Of a stretch of 45,069 nt of DNA, positions 1 to 45,069 are shown in pieces (position 1 is the first letter of the stretch; each line of letters opens with the position of its first letter). The notes below the pieces were generated by a model. It made no database searches, was not told the origin of the DNA, and saw nothing but the letters and a program-made list of their open reading frames with translations. The stretch comes from a phage. The stretch lies in the sequence record PZ334583.1, one strand, 5' to 3'. Position numbers and translations under genes: made by a program.

Positions 1-1899
1 ATGGCAAAGGCTAGAGAATCACAGGCAGAGGCATTAAAGCGGTGGGAAAACCTTAAAGAACTACAAGACACTTTTAAATATACAGCGGAAGGTTTGCTTC
101 TCTTTGCAGATACAGTTATCCATAACTTAATTGCAGGCAACCCTCATCTGATTCGTATGCAGGCTGATATCTTGAAGTTCCTATTTTACGGACACAAGTA
201 CCGCCTCATCGAAGCGCCTCGTGGTATCGCTAAGACAACACTATCAGCAATCTATACGGTATTCCGTATTATTCATGAACCGCATAAGCGTATTATGGTT
301 GTGTCCCAAAACGCCAAGCGAGCAGAGGAAATCGCAGGTTGGGTAGTTAAAATCTTCCGTGGCTTAGACTTTCTTGAGTTTATGCTGCCGGATATCTACG
401 CTGGGGACCGTGCATCCGTTAAGGCGTTTGAGATTCATTACACCCTACGTGGTAGTGATAAGTCTCCTTCTGTATCCTGTTACTCAATCGAAGCAGGTAT
501 GCAGGGTGCTCGTGCTGATATTATTCTAGCGGATGACGTAGAGTCGATGCAGAATGCTCGTACGGCAGCGGGCCGTGCCTTGCTTGAGGAGCTGACTAAG
601 GAGTTTGAATCTATCAACCAGTTTGGGGATATCATTTACCTTGGTACACCTCAGAACGTAAACTCTATCTACAACAACCTACCTGCTCGTGGTTACTCTG
701 TTCGTATCTGGACTGCGCGTTACCCTTCAGTAGAGCAAGAGCAATGTTATGGCGACTTCCTTGCACCTATGATTGTTCAAGATATGAAGGACAACCCAGC
801 ACTTCGCTCAGGGTACGGGTTGGATGGTAATAGTGGTGCACCTTGTGCCCCTGAAATGTATGATGATGAAGTCCTGATTGAGAAGGAAATCTCTCAGGGT
901 GCTGCTAAGTTCCAGCTTCAGTTCATGCTTAACACTCGCATGATGGATGCTGACAGATACCCATTACGCCTGAACAATCTAATCTTCACCTCGTTTGGTA
1001 CAGAGGAAGTCCCTGTGATGCCTACGTGGAGTAATGATTCCATAAACATCATTGGTGATGCACCTAAGTATGGTAACAAGCCTACGGATTTCATGTACAG
1101 ACCTGTAGCTCGCCCATATGAATGGGGTGCTGTCTCCCGCAAGATTATGTATATCGACCCTGCGGGTGGTGGTAAGAACGGAGATGAGACGGGTGTAGCC
1201 ATCGTATTCCTGCACGGCACATTCATTTATGTGTATCAGTGCTTTGGTGTACCTGGCGGATACCGAGAGTCGTCCCTGAATCGCATTGTGCAGGCCGCAA
1301 AGCAGGCGGGTGTTAAAGAGGTATTCATTGAGAAGAACTTTGGTCATGGCGCGTTTGAGGCGGTAATTAAGCCGTACTTTGAACGAGAGTGGCCTGTAAC
1401 TCTGGAAGAGGATTACGCCACCGGACAGAAAGAGTTGCGTATCATTGAGACGCTGGAGCCGCTCATGGCAGCACATAGGCTTATCTTCAATGCAGAGATG
1501 GTGAAGTCAGACTTTGAGTCGGTACAGCACTATCCGCTTGAACTACGCATGTCCTACAGTCTTTTCAATCAAATGTCGAACATAACGATTGAGAAGAACA
1601 GCCTCCGGCACGATGACCGCCTAGACGCCCTGTATGGCGCTATACGGCAATTAACTTCTCAGATAGACTATGACGAGGTTACACGGATTAATCGCCTCAG
1701 AGCGCAGGAGATGCGAGATTACATCCATGCTATGAACACACCTCATCTACGCAGGGCAATGCTATATGGGGATTACGGTACTGAGCGAAGAGTGACCAAC
1801 ACTTCCGTAGCGATGCAGCAGCGAGTTTACGGGCAGAACTACCGAAATAAATCGGCAAGCAGAAATACACTTTCTGCAAGGATTTCAAGGACTTATTAA
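1..1899 (+). CDS. terL: Terminase large subunit (T7 gp19-like); its ATG and first 14 nt are also present at 45056..45069
   Basis: 632-aa ORF; N-terminal sequence recognised as T7-group large terminase; position upstream of the tailspike genes as in SP6/K1-5-type genomes; RBS AAGGAG at 45042..45047. Confidence 0.93.
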   Translation: MAKARESQAEALKRWENLKELQDTFKYTAEGLLLFADTVIHNLIAGNPHLIRMQADILKFLFYGHKYRLIEAPRGIAKTTLSAIYTVFRIIHEPHKRIMVVSQNAKRAEEIAGWVVKIFRGLDFLEFMLPDIYAGDRASVKAFEIHYTLRGSDKSPSVSCYSIEAGMQGARADIILADDVESMQNARTAAGRALLEELTKEFESINQFGDIIYLGTPQNVNSIYNNLPARGYSVRIWTARYPSVEQEQCYGDFLAPMIVQDMKDNPALRSGYGLDGNSGAPCAPEMYDDEVLIEKEISQGAAKFQLQFMLNTRMMDADRYPLRLNNLIFTSFGTEEVPVMPTWSNDSINIIGDAPKYGNKPTDFMYRPVARPYEWGAVSRKIMYIDPAGGGKNGDETGVAIVFLHGTFIYVYQCFGVPGGYRESSLNRIVQAAKQAGVKEVFIEKNFGHGAFEAVIKPYFEREWPVTLEEDYATGQKELRIIETLEPLMAAHRLIFNAEMVKSDFESVQHYPLELRMSYSLFNQMSNITIEKNSLRHDDRLDALYGAIRQLTSQIDYDEVTRINRLRAQEMRDYIHAMNTPHLRRAMLYGDYGTERRVTNTSVAMQQRVYGQNYRNKSASRNTLSARISRTY

Positions 1900-3567: not shown

Positions 3568-3590
3568 ATTTACTGGACACTATAGAAGAG
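3568..3590 (+). promoter_or_regulatory. Phage RNAP promoter, putative +1 G at 3585
   Basis: gatttactggacactatagaagag, perfect consensus, upstream of tailspike 1. Confidence 0.85.
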
Positions 3591-3669
3591 ATAAGATAGC
3601 GCCGTTCTTTTGAGCGGCCTATTACTAGCCAATCTTCATAGGGAGGGTTGGAAAGTAATAGGAGATAGT

Positions 3670-5568
3670 ATGGCTAAATTAACCAAACCTAATACTGAAG
3701 GAATCTTGCATAAAGGACAATCTTTGTATGAGTACCTTGATGCGAGAGTTTTAACATCAAAGCCGTTTGGTGCTGCAGGTGACGCCACTACTGATGATAC
3801 GGAGGTTATAGCTGCTTCATTAAACTCTCAGAAAGCTGTCACAGTCTCAGATGGTGTATTCTCTAGCTCTGGTATTAATAGTAATTACTGTAACTTAGAC
3901 GGTAGGGGTAGTGGCGTGCTAAGTCACCGTTCCAGTACAGGTAACTACTTAGTATTTAACAATCTACGTGCAGGTCGCTTAAGTAATATTACGGTAGAAA
4001 GTAATAAGGCGACTGATACAACTCAGGGACAGCAGGTATCTCTTGCTGGTGGAAGTGATGTTACTATAAGTGACGTTAACTTCTCAAACGTTAAAGGTAC
4101 TGGTTTCAGTTTAATAGCATGCCCTAATGGTGAGCAACCTAACGGGCTTATGATTAAAGGCATTCGAGGTAGCTACTCCGGCTATGCTACTAATAAGGCC
4201 GCTGGATGCGTACTTGCTGACTCCTCAGTTAACTCTCTCATAGATAACGTCATTGCTAAGAGCTATCCTCAGTTTGGAGCTGTAGAGCTGAAAGGTACAG
4301 CCAGTTATAACATAGTAAGTAATGTTATAGGGGCAGATTGCCAACATGTAACTTACAACGGCACTGAAGAGGTAATAGCTCCTTCTAATAACCTTATCAA
4401 GGGTGTGATGGCTAATAATCCTAAGTATGCAGCGGTTGTTGCAGGCAAAGGAAGTACGAACTTAATCTCAGACGTGCTCGTAGATTACTCAACTTCTGAT
4501 GCTAGGCAGGCTCATGGTGTTACCGTAGAAGGGTCTGATAACGTCATAAATAATGTTCTTATGTCAGGATGTGATGGTACTAACTCTTTAGGACAAAGGC
4601 AGACTGCTACAATTGCACGCTTTATAGGTACAGCTAATAACAACTATGCGTCTGTATTTCCTAGCTACAGTGCTACAGGTGTTATTACTTTCGAATCCGG
4701 CTCTACCCGTAACTTCGTAGAGGTAAAGCACCCTGGCAGGAGAAATGACCTTCTCAGTTCTGCTAGTACTATTGACGGTGAAGCTACTATTGACGGCACT
4801 AATAATAGTAACGTAGTGCACGCACCCGCCTTAGGGCAGTACATAGGTAGTATGTCAGGTAGGTTCGAATGGCGGATTAAGTCCATGTCACTACCTTCAG
4901 GCGTTCTTACTTCGGCTGATAAGTACAGAATGCTTGGGGATGGTGCTGTGTCATTCGCTGTAGGTGGGGGCACTTCTTCTCAAGTTCGCCTATTTACTTC
5001 TGATGGTACTTCTCGGACAGTGTCCCTCACCAACGGTAACGTGCGTCTTTCTACCAGTAGCACAGGATATTTGCAGTTAGGTTCTGATGCAATGACCCCA
5101 GATAGTACTGGTACATACGCATTAGGTTCCGCCAGTAGAGCATGGTCTGGCGGTTTTACTCAATCAGCATTCACTGTTGTCTCAGATGCTAGGGATAAAA
5201 CAGAGCCCCTTATTATCTCAGATGCTTTACTGGATGCTTGGTCTGAAGTTGACTTTGTGCAGTTTCAGTACTTGGACCGAATTGAGGAGAAGGGTGCAGA
5301 CTCAGCTAGATGGCACTTCGGTATCATCGCTCAGCGAGCTAAGGAGGCTTTCGAACGTCACGGTATAGATGCACACCGCTACGGCTTCTTGTGCTTCGAC
5401 AGTTGGGATGATGTATACGAGGAAGATGCCAATGGCTCTCGTAAACTGATTACACCAGCAGGTTCCCGCTACGGTATTCGTTACGAGGAAGTACTGATAT
5501 TAGAGGCTGCATTGATGCGACGGACTATTAAGCGTATGCAGGAAGCACTAGCTGCCATTCCTAAGTAA
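3670..5568 (+). CDS. Tailspike 1: beta-helix capsule depolymerase-like with C-terminal intramolecular chaperone (peptidase S74) domain
   Basis: ATG 3670 (MAKLTKPNTEG...) with RBS GGAG; Ser/Thr/Gly/Asn-rich repetitive body typical of a beta-helix; C-terminus VSDARDKTEP...WHFGIIAQ...GIRYEEV matches the auto-cleaving chaperone domain of endosialidase and K5-lyase tailspikes. Confidence 0.9.
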   Translation: MAKLTKPNTEGILHKGQSLYEYLDARVLTSKPFGAAGDATTDDTEVIAASLNSQKAVTVSDGVFSSSGINSNYCNLDGRGSGVLSHRSSTGNYLVFNNLRAGRLSNITVESNKATDTTQGQQVSLAGGSDVTISDVNFSNVKGTGFSLIACPNGEQPNGLMIKGIRGSYSGYATNKAAGCVLADSSVNSLIDNVIAKSYPQFGAVELKGTASYNIVSNVIGADCQHVTYNGTEEVIAPSNNLIKGVMANNPKYAAVVAGKGSTNLISDVLVDYSTSDARQAHGVTVEGSDNVINNVLMSGCDGTNSLGQRQTATIARFIGTANNNYASVFPSYSATGVITFESGSTRNFVEVKHPGRRNDLLSSASTIDGEATIDGTNNSNVVHAPALGQYIGSMSGRFEWRIKSMSLPSGVLTSADKYRMLGDGAVSFAVGGGTSSQVRLFTSDGTSRTVSLTNGNVRLSTSSTGYLQLGSDAMTPDSTGTYALGSASRAWSGGFTQSAFTVVSDARDKTEPLIISDALLDAWSEVDFVQFQYLDRIEEKGADSARWHFGIIAQRAKEAFERHGIDAHRYGFLCFDSWDDVYEEDANGSRKLITPAGSRYGIRYEEVLILEAALMRRTIKRMQEALAAIPK

Positions 5569-5653: not shown

Positions 5654-7837
5654 ATGCTACAAAGATTAGGGGCAATGTTTGTTCGGTATAAAAATAAAGT
5701 AGGTAATGCTATCGAGCGTACACTACAAAGTAAATTACAGGATGTAGTCAGTGTAAAGGACTATGGCGCCATTGGTGATGGGGTATATCGTTCACTTGGT
5801 GATAAATTTACCACGTTAAGTATCGCACAAGTAGTATACCCACATGCTGAAAGTTTAACTCAATCGCAAGATTGGGCGGCTATTCAGGCTGCACTTAATT
5901 CTCACTCAAAAGTGTACATTCCAGCAGGTAGATACATGCTATCTGATACCATTGAGATGAGCGGAGGTCAAACTCTGCAAGGTGACGGTATTGACTCTTG
6001 GGTTGCAGGTTATGCTGGGTTTGTACAAGATAGGCAAGGCACTCACCTTATAATGGTGGGAGATGGCAATAAGAAGTATACATTAGATCATGTATCTAAC
6101 TTCGATGTAGAAGGTGGTGTCATAGACAACCCAGCTAAGAGTGATTCTTATACTGCCACTGCACCTTCCCCTAATTACTCATTTACTAACTTCACTAATG
6201 CTAACGCCTCTGGTGCACAACGTGCTACATTGAAACCTTTCAGCGTAGCATTACGTTGCACAGGTCACGGTGGTGTTTACCTTCGTGACTTCCGTATTGT
6301 GCCTAATCACAGAGGGCAAGAAGGTTATAAGGATGAGTTGTCAACTGCATTAGGGGACGCATGGGATGTAGGTATTTGGCTGGAGAATACATCTGACTCA
6401 GTGTTATCTTCTGTGCAAGCAGTAGGTTACTGGCGCATTGCAGGTGTTATGAAGACTTGTATACCACAAGATGGTTCCTTTGTTGGTGGAGAGCGTGATA
6501 GGATATACAATTGCACATTACAAGGTTATCGTGGCTTCTTAGCACGTTCGCATGATACTTACCAAGTAGAAGAAGTATCAGGTAACACTGTATCGATTAA
6601 GTGGTCTGCATCTCACACTTTCGAACCTTCTGGTAAAGTTCGTATCCAAGGGAAAGACCGTAGTTATACTAGCCTGTCTGTATCTGGTGACAAATTAGTT
6701 TTCACTGGTATTGACGATGTATCAGATATTAATACCAAGAGCTATGTGAGAGTTTCAGGGTCTTCATTCGGAATGTCTGCTACTCAACTAAATAACACAT
6801 ACATCGCTGCATTAAACCATCATGCTCGCTTGCCAGCGACCTCTAATCTTTTAGATAATAGGTTTTCTACTTCGGCAGCTTGCTATGAAGTTGCAGGTGA
6901 ACCAATTCGTGCCATAAAATTATCTAACTGTACTGTCATTACTTGGGATGACATCTTAGGTATGACTGGTGGTATTAGGGACTTCCAGACGACAGATACT
7001 TACTTCGAGTCTCAGCCTTTCCGTACTTCTGTGCAAGGCTTGGCAAGCACCACACAACCTGCTGGTTCTCGCATGATTGCACTTCGTGGACGTCAAGGTT
7101 CTAAAACTACAGGCTATCAAGCTATCGGTTGTACTTATGGGCCGGGTGTAGACCTAAGCCCTCGTTATGAAAGCGATGTATCTCGTTACACAACTTCCGG
7201 TGGTATGTTCAATCCAAGAGAAGATTTGAACACAACTAAGCAGTTACCAATGAGGCAAGACGCTACTGAGCTATCTTCTACTTCTGGCTTATTCCTTACA
7301 CATGCTGTAGGTGGGAAGGCCTATGTTGGCGCTACCTCTGGTGATGCAACGCTTCAATCTAGAACTGGATCATTGAATATCCAATCAGGACTTCGTGTAC
7401 GCATTGGTGGCACTGATGGTAGTGGTTGGTATATTGCTGACAGTGCTAAGTTGACACCTACTGCTGACAATGCAAGGGCTTGTGGACAACCTAATGGACG
7501 ATGGACTGTTGTCTATGCTGTTAATGGTACAATCCAGACTTCTGATGGTAGATTCAAGGAAATCCTTGAGATTGAACAGGCAGAACTTGATGCTGGTCTT
7601 GAATTATCAGCAAACCTAATTAAGTATCGGTGGAATGGGGAAGATAAAATTCACTTTGGTTGCATAGCACAAGAAGTGATGTTAATCCTGGAGAAACATG
7701 GCCTAAACCCATTACAATATGATATGGTTCAGTATGATGAGGAGGCAGACATCTTTGGGGTAAACTATGCTGAACTCAACAGCTTCTGTATTGCAGCATT
7801 ATCGAGGAAGTTAAATGCCATTAATCAGATCAGTTAA
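5654..7837 (+). CDS. Tailspike 2: pectate-lyase-like beta-helix with C-terminal intramolecular chaperone (peptidase S74) domain
   Basis: 727 aa; RBS AAAGGAGG; VKDYGAIGDG motif (pectate_lyase_3-type beta-helix N-cap); C-terminus TSDGRFKE...IHFGCIAQ...GVNYAEL is the S74 chaperone. Confidence 0.9.
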   Translation: MLQRLGAMFVRYKNKVGNAIERTLQSKLQDVVSVKDYGAIGDGVYRSLGDKFTTLSIAQVVYPHAESLTQSQDWAAIQAALNSHSKVYIPAGRYMLSDTIEMSGGQTLQGDGIDSWVAGYAGFVQDRQGTHLIMVGDGNKKYTLDHVSNFDVEGGVIDNPAKSDSYTATAPSPNYSFTNFTNANASGAQRATLKPFSVALRCTGHGGVYLRDFRIVPNHRGQEGYKDELSTALGDAWDVGIWLENTSDSVLSSVQAVGYWRIAGVMKTCIPQDGSFVGGERDRIYNCTLQGYRGFLARSHDTYQVEEVSGNTVSIKWSASHTFEPSGKVRIQGKDRSYTSLSVSGDKLVFTGIDDVSDINTKSYVRVSGSSFGMSATQLNNTYIAALNHHARLPATSNLLDNRFSTSAACYEVAGEPIRAIKLSNCTVITWDDILGMTGGIRDFQTTDTYFESQPFRTSVQGLASTTQPAGSRMIALRGRQGSKTTGYQAIGCTYGPGVDLSPRYESDVSRYTTSGGMFNPREDLNTTKQLPMRQDATELSSTSGLFLTHAVGGKAYVGATSGDATLQSRTGSLNIQSGLRVRIGGTDGSGWYIADSAKLTPTADNARACGQPNGRWTVVYAVNGTIQTSDGRFKEILEIEQAELDAGLELSANLIKYRWNGEDKIHFGCIAQEVMLILEKHGLNPLQYDMVQYDEEADIFGVNYAELNSFCIAALSRKLNAINQIS

Positions 7838-7964
7838 GCAAAGTGCTGTACGCCAGAACACAGAAGAACCTATTCAATCAGGACGTAACCCTAAGCAGGC
7901 TTATGCCATTGCCAAGGATGTACAACGTCGTGCCATGAAGAAACCTTCTGCATCTTCTGCGTAA
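7815..7964 (+). CDS. Small basic ORF (49 aa) overlapping the tailspike 2 stop
   Basis: ATG 7815 with RBS GAGGAAG 7803..7809; MPLIRSVKQSAVRQNTEEPIQSGRNPKQAYAIAKDVQRRAMKKPSASSA; last ORF before the terminal non-coding region. Confidence 0.35.
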   Translation: MPLIRSVKQSAVRQNTEEPIQSGRNPKQAYAIAKDVQRRAMKKPSASSA

Positions 7965-7976
7965 GCAGGTTAATAT

Positions 7977-8020
7977 CTTAGTGTACACAAGGGCAGACCT
8001 AGGTTTGCTCTTAGTGTATT
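7977..8020. repeat. Right-flank array of CTTAGTG heptamer repeats (SRR-like)
   Basis: cttagtgtacacaagg...ctcttagtgtatttac; same heptamer family as the 8320..8920 array. Confidence 0.5.
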
Positions 8021-8034
8021 TACAATGGAGGTCT

Positions 8035-8050
8035 TATATATATATATATA
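8035..8050. repeat. (TA)8 dinucleotide repeat
   Basis: tatatatatatatata read directly. Confidence 0.9.
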
Positions 8051-8147
8051 CCTATGGAAGCAATAGTAAGTTGCCTATGCTTGTTGATAGGTTTCGTTAT
8101 AGGCTTAATAGTAAATCCTTAGTCCTGTACAAGGGTTAACCAAAGTC

Positions 8148-8162
8148 AAAAAAAAAAAAAAA
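8148..8162. repeat. A15 homopolymer
   Basis: 15 consecutive A read directly, followed by a GC-rich block ctcgccctcgccctcgcc. Confidence 0.9.
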
Positions 8163-8319
8163 TTTGATGTAGGCGTGTGTCAGCTCTCTCGCCCTCGCCC
8201 TCGCCGGGTTGCCCCCATAGGGTGGCCTGAGGGAATCCGTCTTCGACGGGCAGGGCTGATGTGCTCCTTGGATAGTACAAGGGAGGCGGAGGGAACGCCT
8301 AGGGAGGCCTAGGAATGGC

Positions 8320-8920
8320 TTAGTGGTGGACAAGGTGATTGCCTTAGTGAAGCCTCTTAGTGCATTCCTGAGGCCATTCAGGGCGTTTATGAGGTATTGA
8401 CAAGATGGAGGGGGGCGTGGGCTATCTGTTCGTTTCGTTCACTCCGCTTGCGCTACGTTCACTCGCTCACGTGTACCTTAGGCTATTCCTTTATGGATAG
8501 CTTAGGTTATAGCTTAGTGGCCTACCTTAGTTATAACCTTAGTGCATAGCTTAGTATCAGCTTAGTAGTGTACCTTAGTAAGTCTTAGTGTCTTCTCTTA
8601 GTGATTGCACATGCAAGCATGTAAGATGCCATTAGGTCGCGGTCGGTAGACCGCTAAAGAAGGAGAATAGTAATAAGATGCAGTAGGAGGAACACCAGAA
8701 GCCTAGCCAACCTAAGCTATCCTAGCTCTATATCTATTGCTTTTCCTTAGTCTAACACGTTAGACAACCTATCTTTTTCTTAGTGATGGTAACTTAGTGT
8801 TGACAAGATAATCTTAGTGTAATACTATGCATCACGTAGGCGGTGCTGAGGCACCTAGTAGCCAGCTAGTAAGGCATACGAAGAGACTAGCGCTTACATT
8901 GCTCTTTAACAATTTGCTTA
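8320..8920. repeat. Left-flank array of about 20 dispersed CTTAGTG / AGCTTAGT heptamer repeats (SRL-like), interspersed with host-type promoters
   Basis: ggcttagtgg, gccttagtga, cctcttagtg, tagcttaggttatagcttagtggcctaccttagttataaccttagtgcatagcttagtatcagcttagtagtgtaccttagtaagtcttagtgtcttctcttagtg, and further copies at 8780..8920. Confidence 0.7.
8800..8828 (+). promoter_or_regulatory. Candidate host sigma70 early promoter
   Basis: TTGACA (8800..8805), 17-nt spacer, TACTAT (8823..8828); sits in the early leader as the T7 A promoters do. Confidence 0.4.
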
Positions 8921-8971
8921 GTGTAACCTATGTATGCCGTGGTTAACTACTTATTGAATGAGGTATTAACT

Positions 8972-9151
8972 ATGACATTAAACAACCGTGAACTGTCCGT
9001 TATCTTCACTCTGTTGTGCTACATGATTCGTAACAACGAATTACTTACAGACGATGAGTTAGCCTTGTATCACCGCTTTCTTAACGAAGGTTGGACCGAT
9101 ACAGTTAATCAATACCGTAACATGATAGATGAGTTGAGGGAGGGTAAATAA
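8972..9151 (+). CDS. Early hypothetical protein (59 aa)
   Basis: ATG 8972 with GAGG 8 nt upstream; ORF-track frame 8930..9151. Confidence 0.5.
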   Translation: MTLNNRELSVIFTLLCYMIRNNELLTDDELALYHRFLNEGWTDTVNQYRNMIDELREGK

Positions 9152-9375
9152 TGTATCAACATGAGGTATTCTTTGAATCAGCTAGCGAAGCTATTCGCTT
9201 CCGTGATGATATGATGCAAGCTGGCGTAGGTGTTGATGTGTATCACTATTTGATAGATTACGACACTGAATATCACCGAGTTACCTTAGTGACTGAGTAT
9301 GATAACCAAGTCATCACTGAGTACTTAGGCAGTGAAGATTACGATTACGATGAAGTAATCACGACAAATCTCTAA
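9151..9375 (+). CDS. Early small highly acidic protein (74 aa), possible DNA-mimic-type anti-host factor
   Basis: RBS GGGAGGG; Asp/Glu/Tyr-rich (EYDNQVITEYLGSEDYDYDEV); TAATG overlap with the upstream gene. Confidence 0.6.
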   Translation: MYQHEVFFESASEAIRFRDDMMQAGVGVDVYHYLIDYDTEYHRVTLVTEYDNQVITEYLGSEDYDYDEVITTNL

Positions 9376-9383
9376 ATTAACTG

Positions 9384-9412
9384 TTGACAGCCACGGCATA
9401 CAAGGTTACATT
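9384..9412 (+). promoter_or_regulatory. Candidate host sigma70 early promoter
   Basis: TTGACA (9384..9389), 17-nt spacer, TACATT (9407..9412). Confidence 0.35.
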
Positions 9413-9504
9413 AAGCATCAAGACGGCGACGTCTTTAAACATCCCGCTCTTTAACAATATGGTTTGTGTCTTGATAGGCTAACTAACTAACTAAGGTAAT
9501 TATC

Positions 9505-9615
9505 ATGAAAGGTTTAATTTGTGTAGAACGTATGGTCAATGGTAAAATTGAAATATTACCACTGGAAAACCAATCTAGCTTCAAAGAGTGGTATGGCTGT
9601 TTCTCACTGATTTAA
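9505..9615 (+). CDS. Small early ORF (36 aa)
   Basis: ATG 9505 after a (CTAA)n three-frame stop element and AAGG; MKGLICVERMVNGKIEILPLENQSSFKEWYGCFSLI. Confidence 0.3.
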   Translation: MKGLICVERMVNGKIEILPLENQSSFKEWYGCFSLI

Positions 9616-9766
9616 GGCAAAGGCTGGCACTAGTCAGCCTATCAAGGCGCAAACCAAGCTCTTTAACAATTTGGATGGCAGCTTCTTAGTCTGGATAGGT
9701 TAAACCTAGGGGATTCTCTTGAGTCTCCTATAATGTAACCTAACTAACTAAATGAGGATTAATAAC

Positions 9767-10123
9767 ATGGCTATGTCTAATATGACTTACTCTCAGGTTT
9801 ACAACACCGCTCATGCTGCATTAGTTGAACGTATCTGGAATGATGCTATTGATTGTATTGATAACGCACATGATGCAATCCATGATGCGGCGGATAGTGC
9901 TGTACCAATCTATTATGCTGACATCTTCTCCGTGATGGCGAGTGAAGGAATTGATCATTTCTTCGAAGACTCCGACCTGATGCCAGACACTAAGGATGTA
10001 ACGGTAGTATTGCAAGCCCGTATCTATGAGCAACTCACAATTGATCTATGGGAACGTGTTCAGTATATGATTGTTGAATACATCAACTCCGCCGCATATT
10101 TAGAAGAAAAAGAGGAAGAATAA
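9767..10123 (+). CDS. ocr: Ocr-like DNA-mimic anti-restriction protein (T7 gene 0.3 homolog)
   Basis: MAMSNMTY...[29 protein letters not shown]...[13 protein letters not shown]...[15 protein letters not shown]...EEKEEE closely matches the T7 Ocr sequence as I recall it; acidic; early-region position. Confidence 0.85.
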
Positions 10124-11553: not shown

Positions 11554-14181
11554 ATGCAAGACCTACACGCTATTCAACTTCAACTTGAAGAAGAAATGTT
11601 TAACGGCGGTATCCGTCGCTTTGAAGCGGACCAACAACGCCAGATTGCATCCGGTAATGAATCAGACACGGCATGGAATCGCCGCTTATTATCCGAGTTA
11701 ATCGCGCCAATGGCTGAAGGTATTCAGGCTTATAAGGAAGAGTACGAAGGCAAGCGCGGTCGTGCACCACGTGCATTGGCTTTCATTAACTGCGTAGAAA
11801 ATGAAGTGGCAGCGTATATCACGATGAAGATCGTAATGGATATGCTTAACACTGATGTAACCTTGCAAGCTATCGCTATGAATGTAGCTGACCGCATCGA
11901 AGACCAAGTGCGCTTCAGTAAACTAGAAGGCCATGCAGCTAAATATTTTGAGAAGGTCAAGAAGTCACTTAAGGCAAGTAAGACTAAATCATATCGCCAT
12001 GCGCACAACGTAGCGGTCGTGGCTGAGAAGTCAGTAGCTGACCGTGACGCTGATTTCTCTCGCTGGGAAGCGTGGCCTAAAGATACCTTGCTACAAATTG
12101 GTATGACCTTGCTAGAAATACTGGAAAATAGTGTATTCTTCAACAGGCAGCCTGTTTTCATCCGCACCTTGCGTACTAATGGCGGCAAACACGGTGTTTA
12201 CTACTTACAGACTAGTGAACACGTTGGCGAGTGGATAACCGCCTTCAAAGAGCACGTAGCGCAACTAAGCCCTGCATATGCACCTTGCGTTATTCCTCCG
12301 CGTCCGTGGGTTTCACCTTTCAACGGTGGGTTTCATACTGAGAAAGTAGCAAGTCGTATCCGCCTTGTTAAAGGCAACCGTGAGCACGTCCGTAAGTTAA
12401 CTAAAAAGCAAATGCCAGCGGTCTATAAGGCTGTTAACGCCTTACAAGCTACTAAGTGGCAGGTTAACAAGGAAGTATTGCAGGTAGTAGAAGATGTTAT
12501 TCGTCTAGACCTCGGTTATGGTGTACCTTCCTTTAAGCCGCTCATTGACCGCGAGAACAAACCAGCTAACCCTGTTCCTCTTGAGTTCCAACACCTGCGA
12601 GGCCGTGAACTGAAAGAAATGCTTACGCCGGAACAATGGCAAGCCTTTATCAACTGGAAAGGTGAATGTACTAAGCTGTACACCGCTGAAACTAAGCGCG
12701 GAAGCAAATCGGCGGCAACCGTTCGCATGGTTGGTCAGGCCCGTAAATATAGCCAGTTCGACGCAATCTACTTCGTGTATGCACTGGACAGCCGCAGCCG
12801 CGTCTACGCGCAATCTAGCACACTCTCACCGCAATCAAATGACTTGGGCAAGGCATTGCTCCGTTTTACCGAAGGGCAGCGTCTTGATAGCGCTGAGGCG
12901 CTTAAGTGGTTTTTGGTGAACGGGGCGAATAACTGGGGTTGGGATAAGAAAACTTTTGACGTGCGCACCGCTAACGTGCTGGATAGCGAATTTCAAGACA
13001 TGTGCCGCGACATTGCAGCCGATCCGCTGACCTTCACTCAATGGGTAAATGCTGATTCCCCTTACGGCTTCCTTGCATGGTGCTTTGAATATGCGCGTTA
13101 TCTGGATGCACTGGATGAAGGCACGCAAGACCAATTCATGACGCACCTACCCGTCCATCAAGACGGTAGTTGCTCTGGTATCCAGCACTATAGCGCGATG
13201 TTACGCGATGAAGTAGGTGCGAAAGCAGTAAACCTTAAGCCTTCTGACTCCCCTCAAGATATTTATGGCGCGGTTGCGCAGGTTGTTATCCAGAAGAATT
13301 ACGCCTACATGAATGCAGACGATGCAGAGACTTTCACATCTGGAAGCGTCACACTTACAGGTGCAGAACTGCGTAGCATGGCTAGTGCGTGGGATATGAT
13401 AGGAATCACTCGCGGCCTGACCAAAAAGCCCGTAATGACACTACCTTATGGCAGCACACGTCTAACCTGCCGTGAGTCAGTGATTGATTATATCGTTGAT
13501 TTAGAAGAAAAAGAGGCCCAACGGGCTATTGCGGAAGGGCGTACCGCCAATCCTGTACACCCTTTTGATAATGACCGTAAGGACAGCCTGACACCTAGCG
13601 CAGCTTATAACTATATGACAGCTTTAATCTGGCCTTCTATTTCGGAAGTGGTTAAAGCTCCTATAGTGGCAATGAAAATGATTCGTCAGCTTGCACGTTT
13701 CGCAGCTAAAAGGAATGAAGGCTTAGAGTACACCTTGCCTACTGGCTTCATCTTGCAACAAAAGATAATGGCGACAGATATGCTCCGCGTATCTACTTGC
13801 TTGATGGGCGAAATCAAGATGAGTCTACAGATTGAAACGGACGTAGTGGATGAAACGGCTATGATGGGCGCTGCTGCCCCTAACTTTGTGCACGGTCATG
13901 ATGCCAGTCACCTTATCTTAACGGTCTGCGACCTTGTTGATAAAGGGATTACATCTATCGCAGTAATTCATGATTCTTTTGGCACTCATGCAGGTCGTAC
14001 CGCAGACCTACGTGATAGTCTAAGGGCAGAAATGGTGAAGATGTATCAAGGCCATAACGCTCTGCAAAGCCTGTTAGATGAGCATGAAGAACGCTGGTTA
14101 GTAGACACCGGAATCCAAGTGCCAGAGCAAGGAGAGTTTGACCTTAACGAAATCTTAGTATCTGACTATTGCTTCGCATAA
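11554..14181 (+). CDS. Single-subunit DNA-dependent RNA polymerase (SP6/T7 family)
   Basis: 875 aa; [26 protein letters not shown]... and the catalytic C-terminus ...HDSFGTHA... recognised as SP6-type RNAP; RBS AGGAG. Confidence 0.97.
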
Positions 14182-17094: not shown

Positions 17095-17145
17095 ACTAAC
17101 TTCGATGAAGAAAGTGAGTTCTGATTAGTGTATTTATCAGGGCTT

Positions 17146-17161
17146 GTCTCACATGTGAGAC
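17146..17161. repeat. Palindrome GTCTCACATGTGAGAC, copy 3 (extended stem cttgtctcacatgtgagacagg)
   Basis: exact sequence read; 30-bp context nearly identical to the copy at 39815. Confidence 0.9.
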
Positions 17162-17200
17162 AGGCTCTTATTAAGTACATTAAATAACTGGAGATTGATT

Positions 17201-18279: not shown

Positions 18280-18285
18280 GTCAAG

Positions 18286-18314
18286 GGTTGTCTCACGTGT
18301 GAGACAGCCTTTTA
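18286..18314 (+). terminator. Terminator built on palindrome copy 4 (variant centre CACGTGTG)
   Basis: ggttgtctcacgtgtgagacagcc followed by ttttat; palindrome core 18290..18305. Confidence 0.6.
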
Positions 18315-18336
18315 TCATGTTGATTGGAGGTGCATT

Positions 18337-39802: not shown

Positions 39803-39819
39803 TACCTAACTCAAGGCTT

Positions 39820-39835
39820 GTCTCACATGTGAGAC
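39820..39835. repeat. Palindrome GTCTCACATGTGAGAC, copy 6, between internal virion protein genes
   Basis: exact sequence read; extended context ggcttgtctcacatgtgagacaggtctttat. Confidence 0.9.
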
Positions 39836-39866
39836 AGGTCTTTATGATAGGCACTATGGAGGAACT

Positions 39867-44146: not shown

Positions 44147-44341
44147 ATGATTAACTCCGAACTGGTAGATAGTGGTGTGAAGCTTGCGCCACCTGCACTC
44201 GTATCAGGTGGGTACTTCCTCGGTATCAGTTGGGATAATTGGGTGTTAATAGCAACATTCATTTATACCGTGTTGCAAATTGGGGACTGGTTTTATAATA
44301 AGTTCAAGATTTGGAGGGAGAAGCGTGAGCGTACACAATAA
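44147..44341 (+). CDS. Holin, class II (T7 gp17.5-like)
   Basis: 64 aa; RBS AAGGAGG; FIYTVLQIGDWFYNKF corresponds to IAYTVVQIGAKVVDKM of T7 gp17.5; basic C-terminus. Confidence 0.8.
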   Translation: MINSELVDSGVKLAPPALVSGGYFLGISWDNWVLIATFIYTVLQIGDWFYNKFKIWREKRERTQ

Positions 44342-44624
44342 ACATGCAGCTACAGAGGATGAGGTTGGCATTCTGCATGGTGCTATTACCAAAATCTTCA
44401 ATAAGAAAGCACAGGCAATACTGGACACTATAGAAGAAGACCCTGATGCAGCATTACATTTAGTGCCTGGTAAGGACATTGGTGCAATGTGTAAGTGGGT
44501 TCTTGATAACGGCATTACCGCCACACCTGCTGCACAGCAGGAAGAGTCCAAGTTATCTAAGCGCCTCAAGGCTATCCGAGAGGCATCCAGTGGCAAGATT
44601 ATTCAGTTTACAAAAGAGGAGTGA
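44325..44624 (+). CDS. Putative terminase small subunit (gp18-like)
   Basis: about 99 aa from GTG 44325 (RBS GGAGGG 44313..44318); immediately upstream of terL as in T7; contains a promoter-like sequence. Confidence 0.5.
   Translation: MSVHNKHAATEDEVGILHGAITKIFNKKAQAILDTIEEDPDAALHLVPGKDIGAMCKWVLDNGITATPAAQQEESKLSKRLKAIREASSGKIIQFTKEE
44416..44438 (+). promoter_or_regulatory. Near-consensus phage promoter embedded in the small-terminase coding sequence
   Basis: caatactggacactatagaagaa; would drive the HNH gene and terL. Confidence 0.6.
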
Positions 44625-44625
44625 T

Positions 44626-45069
44626 ATGCATAGATGGTGTGAATCTCAAGGTTATACCATCTTACCTTCTGGTGTCATCCTTTCAAAGGGTGGCACCCCT
44701 CTCAAACCATTCAAGGCGGGTAGGGGTTATTTAGCAGTTAAAATTAAAAATAAAGAAGGTAAATGGCGTAATGTCTATGTTCATCAATTAGTGGCTTATA
44801 AGTATTTACCTAAAACTAATAATGAAGTAAACCACAAAGACGGCGATAAGCACAACAATGATGTTAGCAACTTGGAGTGGGTAACAAGAAGCGAGAATAA
44901 CTATTTAAAATGCAATGGAAATGATAGGAGTGCCTTAAATAGCTATTTAGCAAGATTAAAAGATTGCTTCTTGCAAGGTAAGGGTGTAGCAGAAACCGCT
45001 AGACTTACTGGTAAAAGTGAACCAAGAGTTTCTTCTCTCTTTAAGGAGTGGCGAAATGGCAAAGGCTAG
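44626..45069 (+). CDS. HNH homing-type endonuclease, paralog 2, inserted between the terminase subunit genes
   Basis: 147 aa from ATG 44626 (RBS AGAGGAG); HNH motif EVNHKDGDKHNNDVSNLEW; paralogous to 16601..17089; stop TAG at 45067..45069 overlaps the terL start. Confidence 0.8.
   Translation: MHRWCESQGYTILPSGVILSKGGTPLKPFKAGRGYLAVKIKNKEGKWRNVYVHQLVAYKYLPKTNNEVNHKDGDKHNNDVSNLEWVTRSENNYLKCNGNDRSALNSYLARLKDCFLQGKGVAETARLTGKSEPRVSSLFKEWRNGKG

Follow-up and report, generated by a model that had tools for sequence, protein, structure and literature searches.

The window, 45,069 nucleotides in length, is the whole genome of a Vectrevirus (K1-5/K1E-like; Molineuxvirinae), circularised in assembly and rotated so that the large terminase gene comes first. 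The large terminase has a T7-type domain (PF22530, E = 1.5e-35), the small terminase (encoded at 44280–44624) matches phrog_891, and the single-subunit RNA polymerase is a protein of 875 aa with PF00940 and PF14700. With terminase and single-subunit RNA polymerase both present, the gene content is that of phages with an SP6-like direct terminal repeat. Ten K1-5-type phage promoters are found in the genome. The region between the last late genes and the first early gene (Table 1) is 92–94% identical in nucleotide sequence to Vectrevirus records.

A homologue of gp48 and a remnant of gene 49 occupy the left portion of this region, and for this reason the truly intergenic part is only about 8123–8971; the first-pass annotation, which took about 1.1 kb from 7838 onwards to be non-coding, had overlooked both. 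The remnant covers positions 5–23 of the 25 in the phrog_37692 profile. An Rfam scan of 7700–9900 (E ≤ 1) gives nothing meaningful; one snoRNA match, of 17 bits, is due to chance.

Table 1. Features of the region, in order of position in the window. Heptamer entries give the starts of CTTAG cores; TR, direct terminal repeat.
Feature	Position	Strand	Remarks
gp48 homologue (K1-5/SP6), small late gene, 49 aa	7815–7964	+	near-identical to K1-5 gp48; phrog_2423, E = 1e-20
Left heptamer trio, starts 7977, 8010, 8118	7977–8124	+	CTTAGTG at 7977 and 8010, CTTAGTC at 8118; counterpart of T7 left-hand repeats
Terminator-like hairpin just past gp48	7989–8012	+	10-pair stem, then T-rich tail; conserved in relatives
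(TA)8	8035–8050	+	Tandem Repeats Finder; genome-specific expansion of TATGTATATA; ATG of tiny gene 49 removed
Gene 49 remnant, hydrophobic peptide of 22 aa, MEAIVSCLCLLIGFVIGLIVNP	8054–8122	+	homologous to SP6 gp49 from residue 5
Conserved unique right-end block ACCAAAGTC-AAAATTTT-GATRTAGGCGTGTGTCAGC	8138–8186	+	abuts TR
A15	8148–8162		Tandem Repeats Finder; splits palindrome TCAAAATTTTGA, net gain 10 bp
Predicted TR, single collapsed copy, about 238 bp	8187–8424	+	left end 8185–8189 by reference; right end 8424
Palindrome CCCCCATAGGG	8212–8222	+	TR position 26–28; same element at T7 TR position 26 and in T3; similar in SP6 and K1E
Internal TR heptamer trio, starts 8319, 8343, 8356	8319–8362	+	CTTAGTG x3; same TR offsets in K1-5, EEc4, AAPEc6
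TTGACA hexamer	8397–8402	+	invariant in 13/13 genomes; about 20 nt before TR right boundary; possible -35 box or recognition element
TATCTGTT	8423–8430	+	matches class II pause/termination consensus HATCTGTT of T7-type RNA polymerases; exactly at TR right boundary; T-rich sequence after
Main heptamer array right of TR, starts 8477, 8501, 8513, 8526, 8538, 8550, 8561, 8574, 8584, 8597	8477–8603	+	10 CTTAG(T/G)N copies; counterpart of T7 right-hand repeats
Very conserved non-coding block	8605–8765	+	83–99% identity per 20-nt window, 97–99% at core, even against SP6, K1E, CrRp3
Palindrome between TTGCAC and TAAGAT	8605–8627		replaced by a different palindrome in SP6/K1E group
Hairpin GCGGTC-ggta-GACCGC	8639–8654		within conserved block 8605–8765
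Heptamers further right, starts 8746, 8779, 8793, 8813, 8917		+
Early promoter zone	8746–8828	+	strong sigma-70 promoter: TTGACA 8800–8805, 17-nt spacer, TACTAT 8823–8828
Palindrome GTCTAAC-ac-GTTAGAC	8750–8765		within conserved block 8605–8765
Motif GCTCTTTAACAAT, then last heptamer (8917)	8901–8942	+	GCTCTTTAACAAT also in T7/T3 just upstream of R0.3 site
First early gene, K1-5 gene 1 homologue	8972–9151	+	phrog_9275, E = 3e-40; right limit of terminal region

The region is rich in one heptamer. The window has 24 exact copies of CTTAGTG, as against 7.58 ± 2.85 in shuffled sequences, none of 100 shuffles reaching 24. Thirteen of the exact copies lie within 7977–8923, every one on the + strand, where 0.18 would be expected from the density outside the region (Poisson P = 3e-20). 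CTTAG-core copies in the same interval number 21, all on the + strand: three left of the TR, three inside it and 10 + 5 to its right, a co-oriented short-repeat arrangement of the T7/T3 junction type. Successive starts in the main array are 24, 12, 13, 12, 12, 11, 13, 10 and 13 bp apart, giving a phasing of about 12 bp, and Tandem Repeats Finder reports a 12/24/48-bp periodic array at 8471–8579. Inside and to the right of the TR the heptamers keep their positions copy for copy in K1-5, EEc4 and AAPEc6, and similarly in SP6. The left positions are kept in AAPEc6; K1-5, EEc4 and SP6 have three or four left copies at other offsets. In the alignment of relatives the heptamer cores are 98.5% identical and the spacers 77.7%. 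The word itself differs by lineage, C(C/T)TAAAG in T7/T3 and CTTAGTG in SP6, Klebsiella K1-ULIP33 and this genome; the T7/T3 word is not the repeat word here, so that the design is shared and the sequence family is another. Conservation of cores over spacers, together with the lineage-specific word, argues that the repeats are functional. Even in T7, these heptamers are not known to be bound by any protein. Judged by sequence, a primase site of the SP6 type (GCA) or of the T7 type appears not to explain the heptamer. A literature search on SRL/SRR, CCTAAAG or CTTAGTG in phage terminal repeats gave nothing usable, the original SP6 and K1-5 genome papers being outside its reach.

The placement of the TR rests on homology to deposited records. 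A direct repeat of at least 100 bp is absent from the window, and the TR is therefore taken to be collapsed to one copy; collapse of the terminal repeat is routine when T7-like phages are assembled from short reads (PMC10438801). The TR boundaries are taken from the exact TR of K1-5 and from the ends of about ten other records. The 234-bp K1-5 TR aligns over its full length at 8189–8424 with few indels, about 90% identical, which makes the TR here a homologue of the SP6-like kind. Records of SP6, K1E, R4596, EEc2/4, VEc3 and ACG-C91 begin at the equivalents of 8185–8189; those of AAPEc6, P3a and Sem2 end at the equivalents of 8423/8424. The TRs of K1-5 and SP6 terminate in GGGCTA. The boundaries in this genome are the conserved ones, GGGCTA/TCTGTTCG on the right and GTGTCAGC/TCTC(TC)GCC on the left (slash, boundary), and both boundary blocks, with an identity of 0.91–0.94 across relatives, are among the best conserved non-coding sequence. 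Deposited left ends vary by up to 4 nt within TCTCTC. Homology thus predicts the genome ends with a margin of about 4 nt and a virion genome of about 45,307 bp. GC content is 59% in the TR and 65% in 8185–8320, as against 45% in the genome; CTCGCC is repeated three times at 8188–8205 (Tandem Repeats Finder).

The right boundary coincides with the HATCTGTT match, placed identically in T7 and T3, and by sequence has the pause signal of a T7/T3-type junction. Published work describes the consensus and reports it from the concatemer junction of T7 (PMC11347151; bioRxiv 10.1101/2021.01.11.426313; bioRxiv 10.64898/2026.02.12.705533). ATCTGTT occurs once on the + strand of the genome, where about 3.8 occurrences are expected, and is not significant by itself. 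By analogy with these phages the element is a predicted polymerase pause signal. Two candidate host promoters at the junction were rejected: TTGACA at 8397–8402 has no convincing -10 partner at 15–20 nt, and the T7-type extended -10 motif TGnTA (bioRxiv 10.64898/2026.02.12.705533) is absent, the sequence being TGTTC.

Left of the TR, the right-end block is a candidate terminase recognition site or left-end cleavage context. Its 12-bp palindrome TCAAAATTTTGA is invariant in 12/12 relatives. The A15 run splits this otherwise invariant palindrome beside the cut site, which would be odd if the palindrome were essential. Folded as DNA, the left-boundary block 8130–8215 gives z = 0.01, and the remnant of the palindrome has only 5 bp. 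Neither (TA)8 nor A15 is in the TR, and both are missing from 12/12 relatives. They do not belong to the terminal architecture and are strain-specific simple-sequence expansions or assembly errors. That both are sequencing or assembly artefacts is a real possibility, if a somewhat doubtful one. They are the sole homopolymer of at least 7 and the sole dinucleotide run of at least 5 units in 45 kb, 100 bp apart. No IMG/VR contig has six or more A at the site of the palindrome; the runs are missing there as from the relatives. Odd homopolymers occur in the terminal region of other records, C21 in 101101UKE1 and C10 in ACG-C91. Against an artefact, long ORFs are intact genome-wide, and a general homopolymer error problem is thereby excluded; a gain of 11 bases is atypical of common platform errors; and the palindrome is longer by a net 10 bp exactly, one helical turn, as might be seen in a real variant that is tolerated.

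Right of the TR, the conserved block 8605–8765 is a candidate early leader, promoter or origin-like element. Heptamers 8746, 8779, 8793 and 8813 stand around the sigma-70 promoter, one abutting the -35 box and one within the spacer. A sigma-70 scan of the region gives 3 sites, as against 3.1 in shuffles, the single strong one being 8800–8828; since the count equals the shuffle expectation, the heptamers are not simply promoters. The last heptamer (8917) belongs to the 5' arm of a long-range inverted repeat with its partner arm at 9403–9417. A local RNase III-like hairpin upstream of gene 1 was rejected: the MFE fold of 8826–8925 is no better than shuffles (z = +0.89), and the long-range arms are preferred. 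K1-5-type phage promoters (at most 3 mismatches in 20) are not found between 3588 and 14275, nor is a core match in 7000–9700. The nearest ones to the junction are at 3569 upstream and 14275 downstream; flanking promoters of the phiOR/phiOL kind are absent, a departure from T7/T3.

Taken together, the region is very probably a K1-5/SP6-like concatemer junction with one TR copy at about 8187–8424 and T7-type maturation. The virion DNA would carry the TR of about 238 bp at both ends, with TCTC(TC)GCCC... at the left end and ...GGGCTA at the right. To the left of the TR stand the last late genes (gp48 and the damaged gp49), three heptamers and the invariant block with its palindrome; to the right come ten phased CTTAGTG-type repeats and then, ahead of the first early gene, the very conserved leader block and the major early sigma-70 promoter. 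On the T7 model, replication would give concatemers in which one TR joins each genome to the next. The phage RNA polymerase, moving rightwards through the late genes, would pause at HATCTGTT on the right boundary of the TR; a T7-type terminase would be recruited and would cut at both TR boundaries; repair synthesis would duplicate the TR and so give two copies per packaged genome. With less certainty, the heptamer arrays may be cis-acting protein-binding repeats of the maturation and packaging machinery, the most plausible protein being the small terminase ring.

A wider proposal is tentative and, as a whole, rather doubtful. The CTTAGTG repeats, especially the ten copies phased at 12 bp, would be docking sites for the small terminase ring or another phage protein, and with the polymerase paused at HATCTGTT would form a two-part packaging signal for short exact TRs. 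The word would co-evolve with that protein between T7-like and SP6-like lineages, and A15 would be a natural one-helical-turn spacing mutant of the left-end site.

The heptamers might have their role not in packaging but in early transcription or genome entry, as binding sites or modulators around the host-polymerase promoters, on the DNA that enters the cell first, or as sites for an early phage regulator. The major sigma-70 promoter has five copies around it, both promoter variants of the family have a CTTAGTG immediately next to the -35 TTGACA, CTTAAAG in the T7 sequence overlaps the A1 -35 region, and all copies are co-oriented with transcription. However, copies are also present left of and inside the TR, at a genome right end without an early transcription start; the dense array 8477–8603 has no sigma-70 promoter match; and promoter-like sites are no commoner than in shuffles (3 against 3.1). 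A role of this kind is unlikely.

The layout of the first-pass annotation, in which the arrays bracket a TR lying with both ends in 8020–8330 and made up of (TA)8, A15 and the GC-rich segment, is highly improbable. The left end (8185–8189) does fall within that interval, the TR has the GC-rich segment as its left part, and most T7 heptamers sit outside the T7 TR. The right end does not: the K1-5 TR and several record ends place it at 8424, about 95 bp beyond. Heptamers 8319, 8343 and 8356 are inside the TR and do not bracket it, and the main array is to its right; 8030–8184 is unique right-end sequence including the gene 49 remnant, and its two runs are missing from the 12 relatives. The same annotation located (TA)8, A15 and the GC-rich segment correctly, and its heptamer enrichment is borne out, the figure of about 25 CTTAGTG-type copies giving way to 21 CTTAG-core copies. 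It was right in identifying the concatemer junction of a T7-supergroup phage, for which homology to K1-5 and SP6 and the record ends of relatives speak, in assuming a collapsed terminal repeat and in drawing the analogy with the repeat-flanked TR of T7. Its caution that exact ends are not readable from a circularised assembly alone was sound; homology is needed. That the phage has no fixed ends, with headful packaging of circularly permuted DNA and the region merely a regulatory intergenic spacer, fits a circular assembly with no second repeat copy but is barely conceivable given the T7-type terminase domain, the position-for-position homology to phages deposited with exact terminal repeats, the conserved boundary motifs common to T7/T3 and the routine collapse of repeats in short-read assemblies of T7-like phages (PMC10438801).

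Correct genome ends are of practical value. The virion DNA would be about 45.3 kb, running from near 8187 to 8424, unlike the rotated circle. The difference is important to anyone who deposits the genome in a database, reboots or engineers the phage from synthetic DNA, or annotates the genes at its right and left ends. In kind the region offers nothing new. It restates an old question, the role of heptamer arrays in T7-supergroup phages and the cutting of terminally redundant genomes; the mechanism of T3/T7-type terminal repeats is described as poorly understood in a 2026 review (PMC13595956).

In comparison with T7 and T3, whose concatemer junction has the class II 'CJ' pause/termination site, repeats lie on both sides of and within the TR here too: the T7 record has CCTAAAG twice to the left of, three times inside and eight times to the right of its 160-bp TR. 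Dunn and Studier (1983) reportedly named the short-repeat arrays flanking the T7 TR SRL and SRR, and polymerase pausing is said to have a role in T7 DNA maturation (Lyakhov et al. 1997; Zhang and Studier 2004). Common to T7/T3 and this genome are a left end starting with TCTC, a C-run-ATAGGG palindrome some 26 nt from that end, an ATCTGTT placed exactly on the right boundary of the TR, and host promoters and the GCTCTTTAACAAT motif ahead of the first gene. Differences are the heptamer (CCTAAAG/CTTAAAG there, CTTAGTG here), phiOL/phiOR near the junction there and no equivalent phage promoters here, internal heptamers in the left half of the TR there and in the right half here, and no overall nucleotide homology with this region.

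In comparison with K1-5 (TR of 234 bp, AY370674) and SP6 (TR of 174 bp, AY370673), the TR of about 238 bp is homologous. Its length differs through small indels, with a 2-nt G-run insertion at 8410–8415 in this genome. Gene 49 is of the SP6 type and has lost its start to (TA)8, while gp49 of K1-5 is unrelated and has 42 aa; the palindrome split here by A15 is not split in K1-5 and SP6. Left-end context, right boundary, heptamer offsets inside and to the right of the TR, and flanking genes (gp48/gp49 on the left, gene 1 on the right) are the same in all three. The terminal architecture is of an already known kind, as in close relatives and T7.

The direct terminal repeat (TR) is best estimated at 8187–8424, a length of 238 bp, because of the K1-5 and SP6 repeats and the ends of other deposited records. 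The K1-5 record has an exact 234-bp repeat, one copy per end; its junction, built with a single copy and aligned to the window, gives 8189–8424. The exact SP6 repeat is 174 bp, begins TCTCTCGG after ...GTGTCAGC and ends ...GGGCTA before TCTGTTCG. Records of AAPEc6, Raoultella phage P3a and Sem2 have their last base at the equivalent of 8424/8423, and the first bases of the AAPEc6 record are TCTGTTCG. These alignments fix the right boundary firmly and leave the left end, within TCTCTC, open to a shift of about 2 nt in each direction. The first-pass annotation, which put the genome ends and a collapsed repeat within about 8020–8330, was right in kind, as was its T7-like repeat-flanked junction, and imprecise in coordinates: the left end lies inside that interval, the right end about 95 bp beyond it.

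Both boundary blocks show 0.91–0.94 identity and are among the best-conserved non-coding sequence of the region. The middle of the TR (8223–8310) is rich in indels; repeat lengths in the group therefore range from 174 to about 304 bp. CTCGCC is repeated three times at 8188–8205 (Tandem Repeats Finder). The GC-rich segment described earlier is confirmed (65% in 8185–8320 vs 45% overall). A G-run at 8410–8415 (GGGGGG), between an invariant TTGACA and the right boundary, has a 2-nt insertion relative to 12/12 relatives.

The window as a whole (45,069 bases) is a complete phage genome, with ten copies of the K1-5-type phage promoter TTTACTGGACACTATAGAAG. The region under study shares 92–94% identity with many Vectrevirus (K1-5/K1E-like, Molineuxvirinae) records; the architecture is already known, and the phage is a new member of a genus that has been well sampled. 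The first base is that of the large terminase ATG and the last bases are a stop codon; the assembly was therefore rotated to the large terminase gene. Direct repeats longer than 39 nt are absent from the window, so any TR is present once, collapsed. Between the small and large terminase genes, immediately before the latter, an HNH endonuclease ORF (44479–45069; PF13392, phrog_59) is probably a homing-type insertion; it overlaps the small terminase gene at that gene's end.

Features of the genome and of its terminal region (positions in the window; record ends as window equivalents)
Feature	Position	Description
Large terminase	1–1899	PF22530; T7-type RNase H-like nuclease domain
Conserved 49-aa gene	7815–7964	K1-5 gp48 homologue
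(TA)8	8035–8050	
Gene 49 remnant	8054–8122	SP6-type gene
A15	8148–8162	
SP6 left end	8185	starts TCTCTCGG
K1E (NC_007637), R4596, EEc2/EEc4, ACG-C91 left ends	8187	start TCTCGCCC
VEc3 left end	8188	starts CTCGCCC
K1-5 left end	8189	starts TCGCCC
GC hairpin	8639–8654	inside block 8605–8765
Perfect palindrome	8750–8765	inside block 8605–8765
Long-range inverted-repeat arms	8915–8929/9403–9417 and 9460–9485/9631–9656	
RNA polymerase	11554–14181	single-subunit; PF00940 + PF14700
Small terminase	44280–44624	phrog_891

Left of the TR, two consecutive tailspike-like genes (3610–5568 and 5654–7837), each with a Peptidase_S74 (endosialidase chaperone) domain at its end, form the dual receptor-binding protein arrangement typical of K1-5-like phages. 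The stretch 7838–8930, annotated as non-coding, is so only in part: with the gp48 homologue and the gene 49 remnant removed, the intergenic part is about 8123–8971. (TA)8 and A15 are confirmed by Tandem Repeats Finder; the block that holds them, which falls in the interval proposed earlier for the ends and the TR, is unique right-end DNA. Compared with the relatives, neither run is a family feature. Where the window has TCA(15)TTTGA, 12/12 relatives examined, SP6 among them, have TCAAAATTTTGA, and in these 12 no TA run is longer than 3. (TA)8 is an expanded form of TATGTATATA, the sequence that holds the ATG of the tiny gene 49 (MYIPMEA...) in AAPEc6, KMB47, T147P9 and SP6. That start codon is lost in the window, replaced by (TA)8; the remaining ORF is 22 aa, hydrophobic, and starts at the sole ATG left, an internal one far from the ribosome-binding site. 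A15 interrupts the 12-bp palindrome TCAAAATTTTGA, invariant in 12/12 relatives and some 23 nt to the left of the TR, with a net gain of exactly 10 bp. Apart from A15 the genome has no homopolymer of 7 or more, and apart from (TA)8 no dinucleotide run of at least 5 units; an expanded A-run at the palindrome site is absent from the IMG/VR contigs. The C-run of the TR element CCCCCATAGGG is lengthened in two other deposited genomes, to about C21 in 101101UKE1 (MZ234012, record L020) and to C10 in ACG-C91 (NC_019403, record L030). The terminal region is thus prone to simple-sequence instability or to repeated sequencing problems. A15 and (TA)8 may each be genuine or artefactual.

The CTTAGTG heptamers reported in the first-pass annotation exceed chance by far: 24 copies in the window vs 7.6 ± 2.9 in shuffles. 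Thirteen of these, every one on the + strand, lie within 7977–8923 (0.18 expected from the density elsewhere; P = 3e-20). CTTAG cores total 21: three in 7977–8118, three in 8319–8356, ten in 8477–8597 and five in 8746–8917. The arrays do not simply bracket the TR; three copies sit inside it. The ten-copy array is periodic (confirmed by Tandem Repeats Finder), with spacings that average 12.0 nt after the first gap (12, 13, 12, 12, 11, 13, 10 and 13 nt). Across 13 aligned junctions, identity to the window is 98.5% for its CTTAGT cores and 77.7% for its spacers. Heptamer offsets inside and right of the TR are the same in K1-5, EEc4 and AAPEc6 and similar in SP6. This pattern of core and spacer conservation, with the kept offsets, indicates selection on the repeats themselves.

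The heptamers, which even in T7 are not known to have an established function, are taken with moderate confidence as protein-binding repeats of the concatemer processing machinery; the small terminase ring is the most plausible protein. The chief alternative is that they act in early transcription or in genome entry, since heptamers adjoin the -35 box of the major early promoter (8800–8828) and occupy its spacer. Only two points are unusual here: the two simple-sequence runs specific to this genome, and the question of what the heptamers do.

The non-coding block 8605–8765 is 83–99% conserved per 20-nt window (core 97–99%), even vs SP6, K1E and CrRp3. Between TTGCAC and TAAGAT it has a palindrome, and the SP6/K1E group has another one there (CATGCaaGCATG against ATAGCT..AGCTAT). 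The motif GCTCTTTAACAAT occurs at 8901–8913, 9446–9458 and 9658–9670, each copy preceded and followed by long-range inverted-repeat arms bracketing small early genes. The last 'heptamer' (8917) is part of one such arm. The second stem measures 21 nt in the window against 20 nt in K1-5 and 18 nt in SP6, and shows one compensatory change; in SP6 the modules stand in a different order. T7 and T3 carry the motif too, ahead of the R0.3 RNase III site. Motif and stems look like processing stems around exchangeable gene cassettes. A separate 35-nt element with the perfect hairpin GTCTCACATGTGAGAC (17137–17171, 18281–18315, 39811–39845) is possibly a phage-polymerase terminator or processing site.

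HATCTGTT followed by a T-rich stretch is the class II signal at which T7-type RNA polymerases pause or terminate, and its sole natural instance in T7 is at the concatemer junction (PMC11347151; bioRxiv 10.1101/2021.01.11.426313; bioRxiv 10.64898/2026.02.12.705533; PMC11617373). ATCTGTT occurs once on the + strand of the window, at 8424–8430. The junction holds one TR copy and conserved cut-site contexts; a pause signal marks the right boundary of the TR, and the heptamers are conserved, phased and all in one orientation. Following the T7 model, late transcription would pause at HATCTGTT and lead to processing of concatemers joined via the single repeat; terminase would cut at the TR boundaries, and the TR would be duplicated by synthesis. 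Chung and Hinkle 1990 is cited for the T7 model of concatemer processing; Lyakhov et al. 1997 and Zhang and Studier 2004 are said to link polymerase pausing to DNA maturation.

The T7 record has an exact 160-bp TR, with CCTAAAG twice to its left, three times inside and eight times to its right; the annotated T3 TR is 231 bp, with C(C/T)TAAAG copies. Unlike T7 and T3, the window has no phage promoter near the junction. The heptamer word is lineage-specific: CTTAGTG is used in SP6, Klebsiella phage K1-ULIP33 and the window, and phiKMV uses neither word. Common across lineages are a TR left end starting TCTC and a C-run-ATAGGG palindrome about 26 nt from it (T7 26; K1E/R4596/EEc4 27; window 26–28). 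ATCTGTT stands exactly at the right boundary in T7 (CCCT/ATCTGTTACAG, the slash marking the boundary), T3 (CCCT/ATCTGTTAGCC), and SP6 and the window (GGGCTA/TCTGTTCG).
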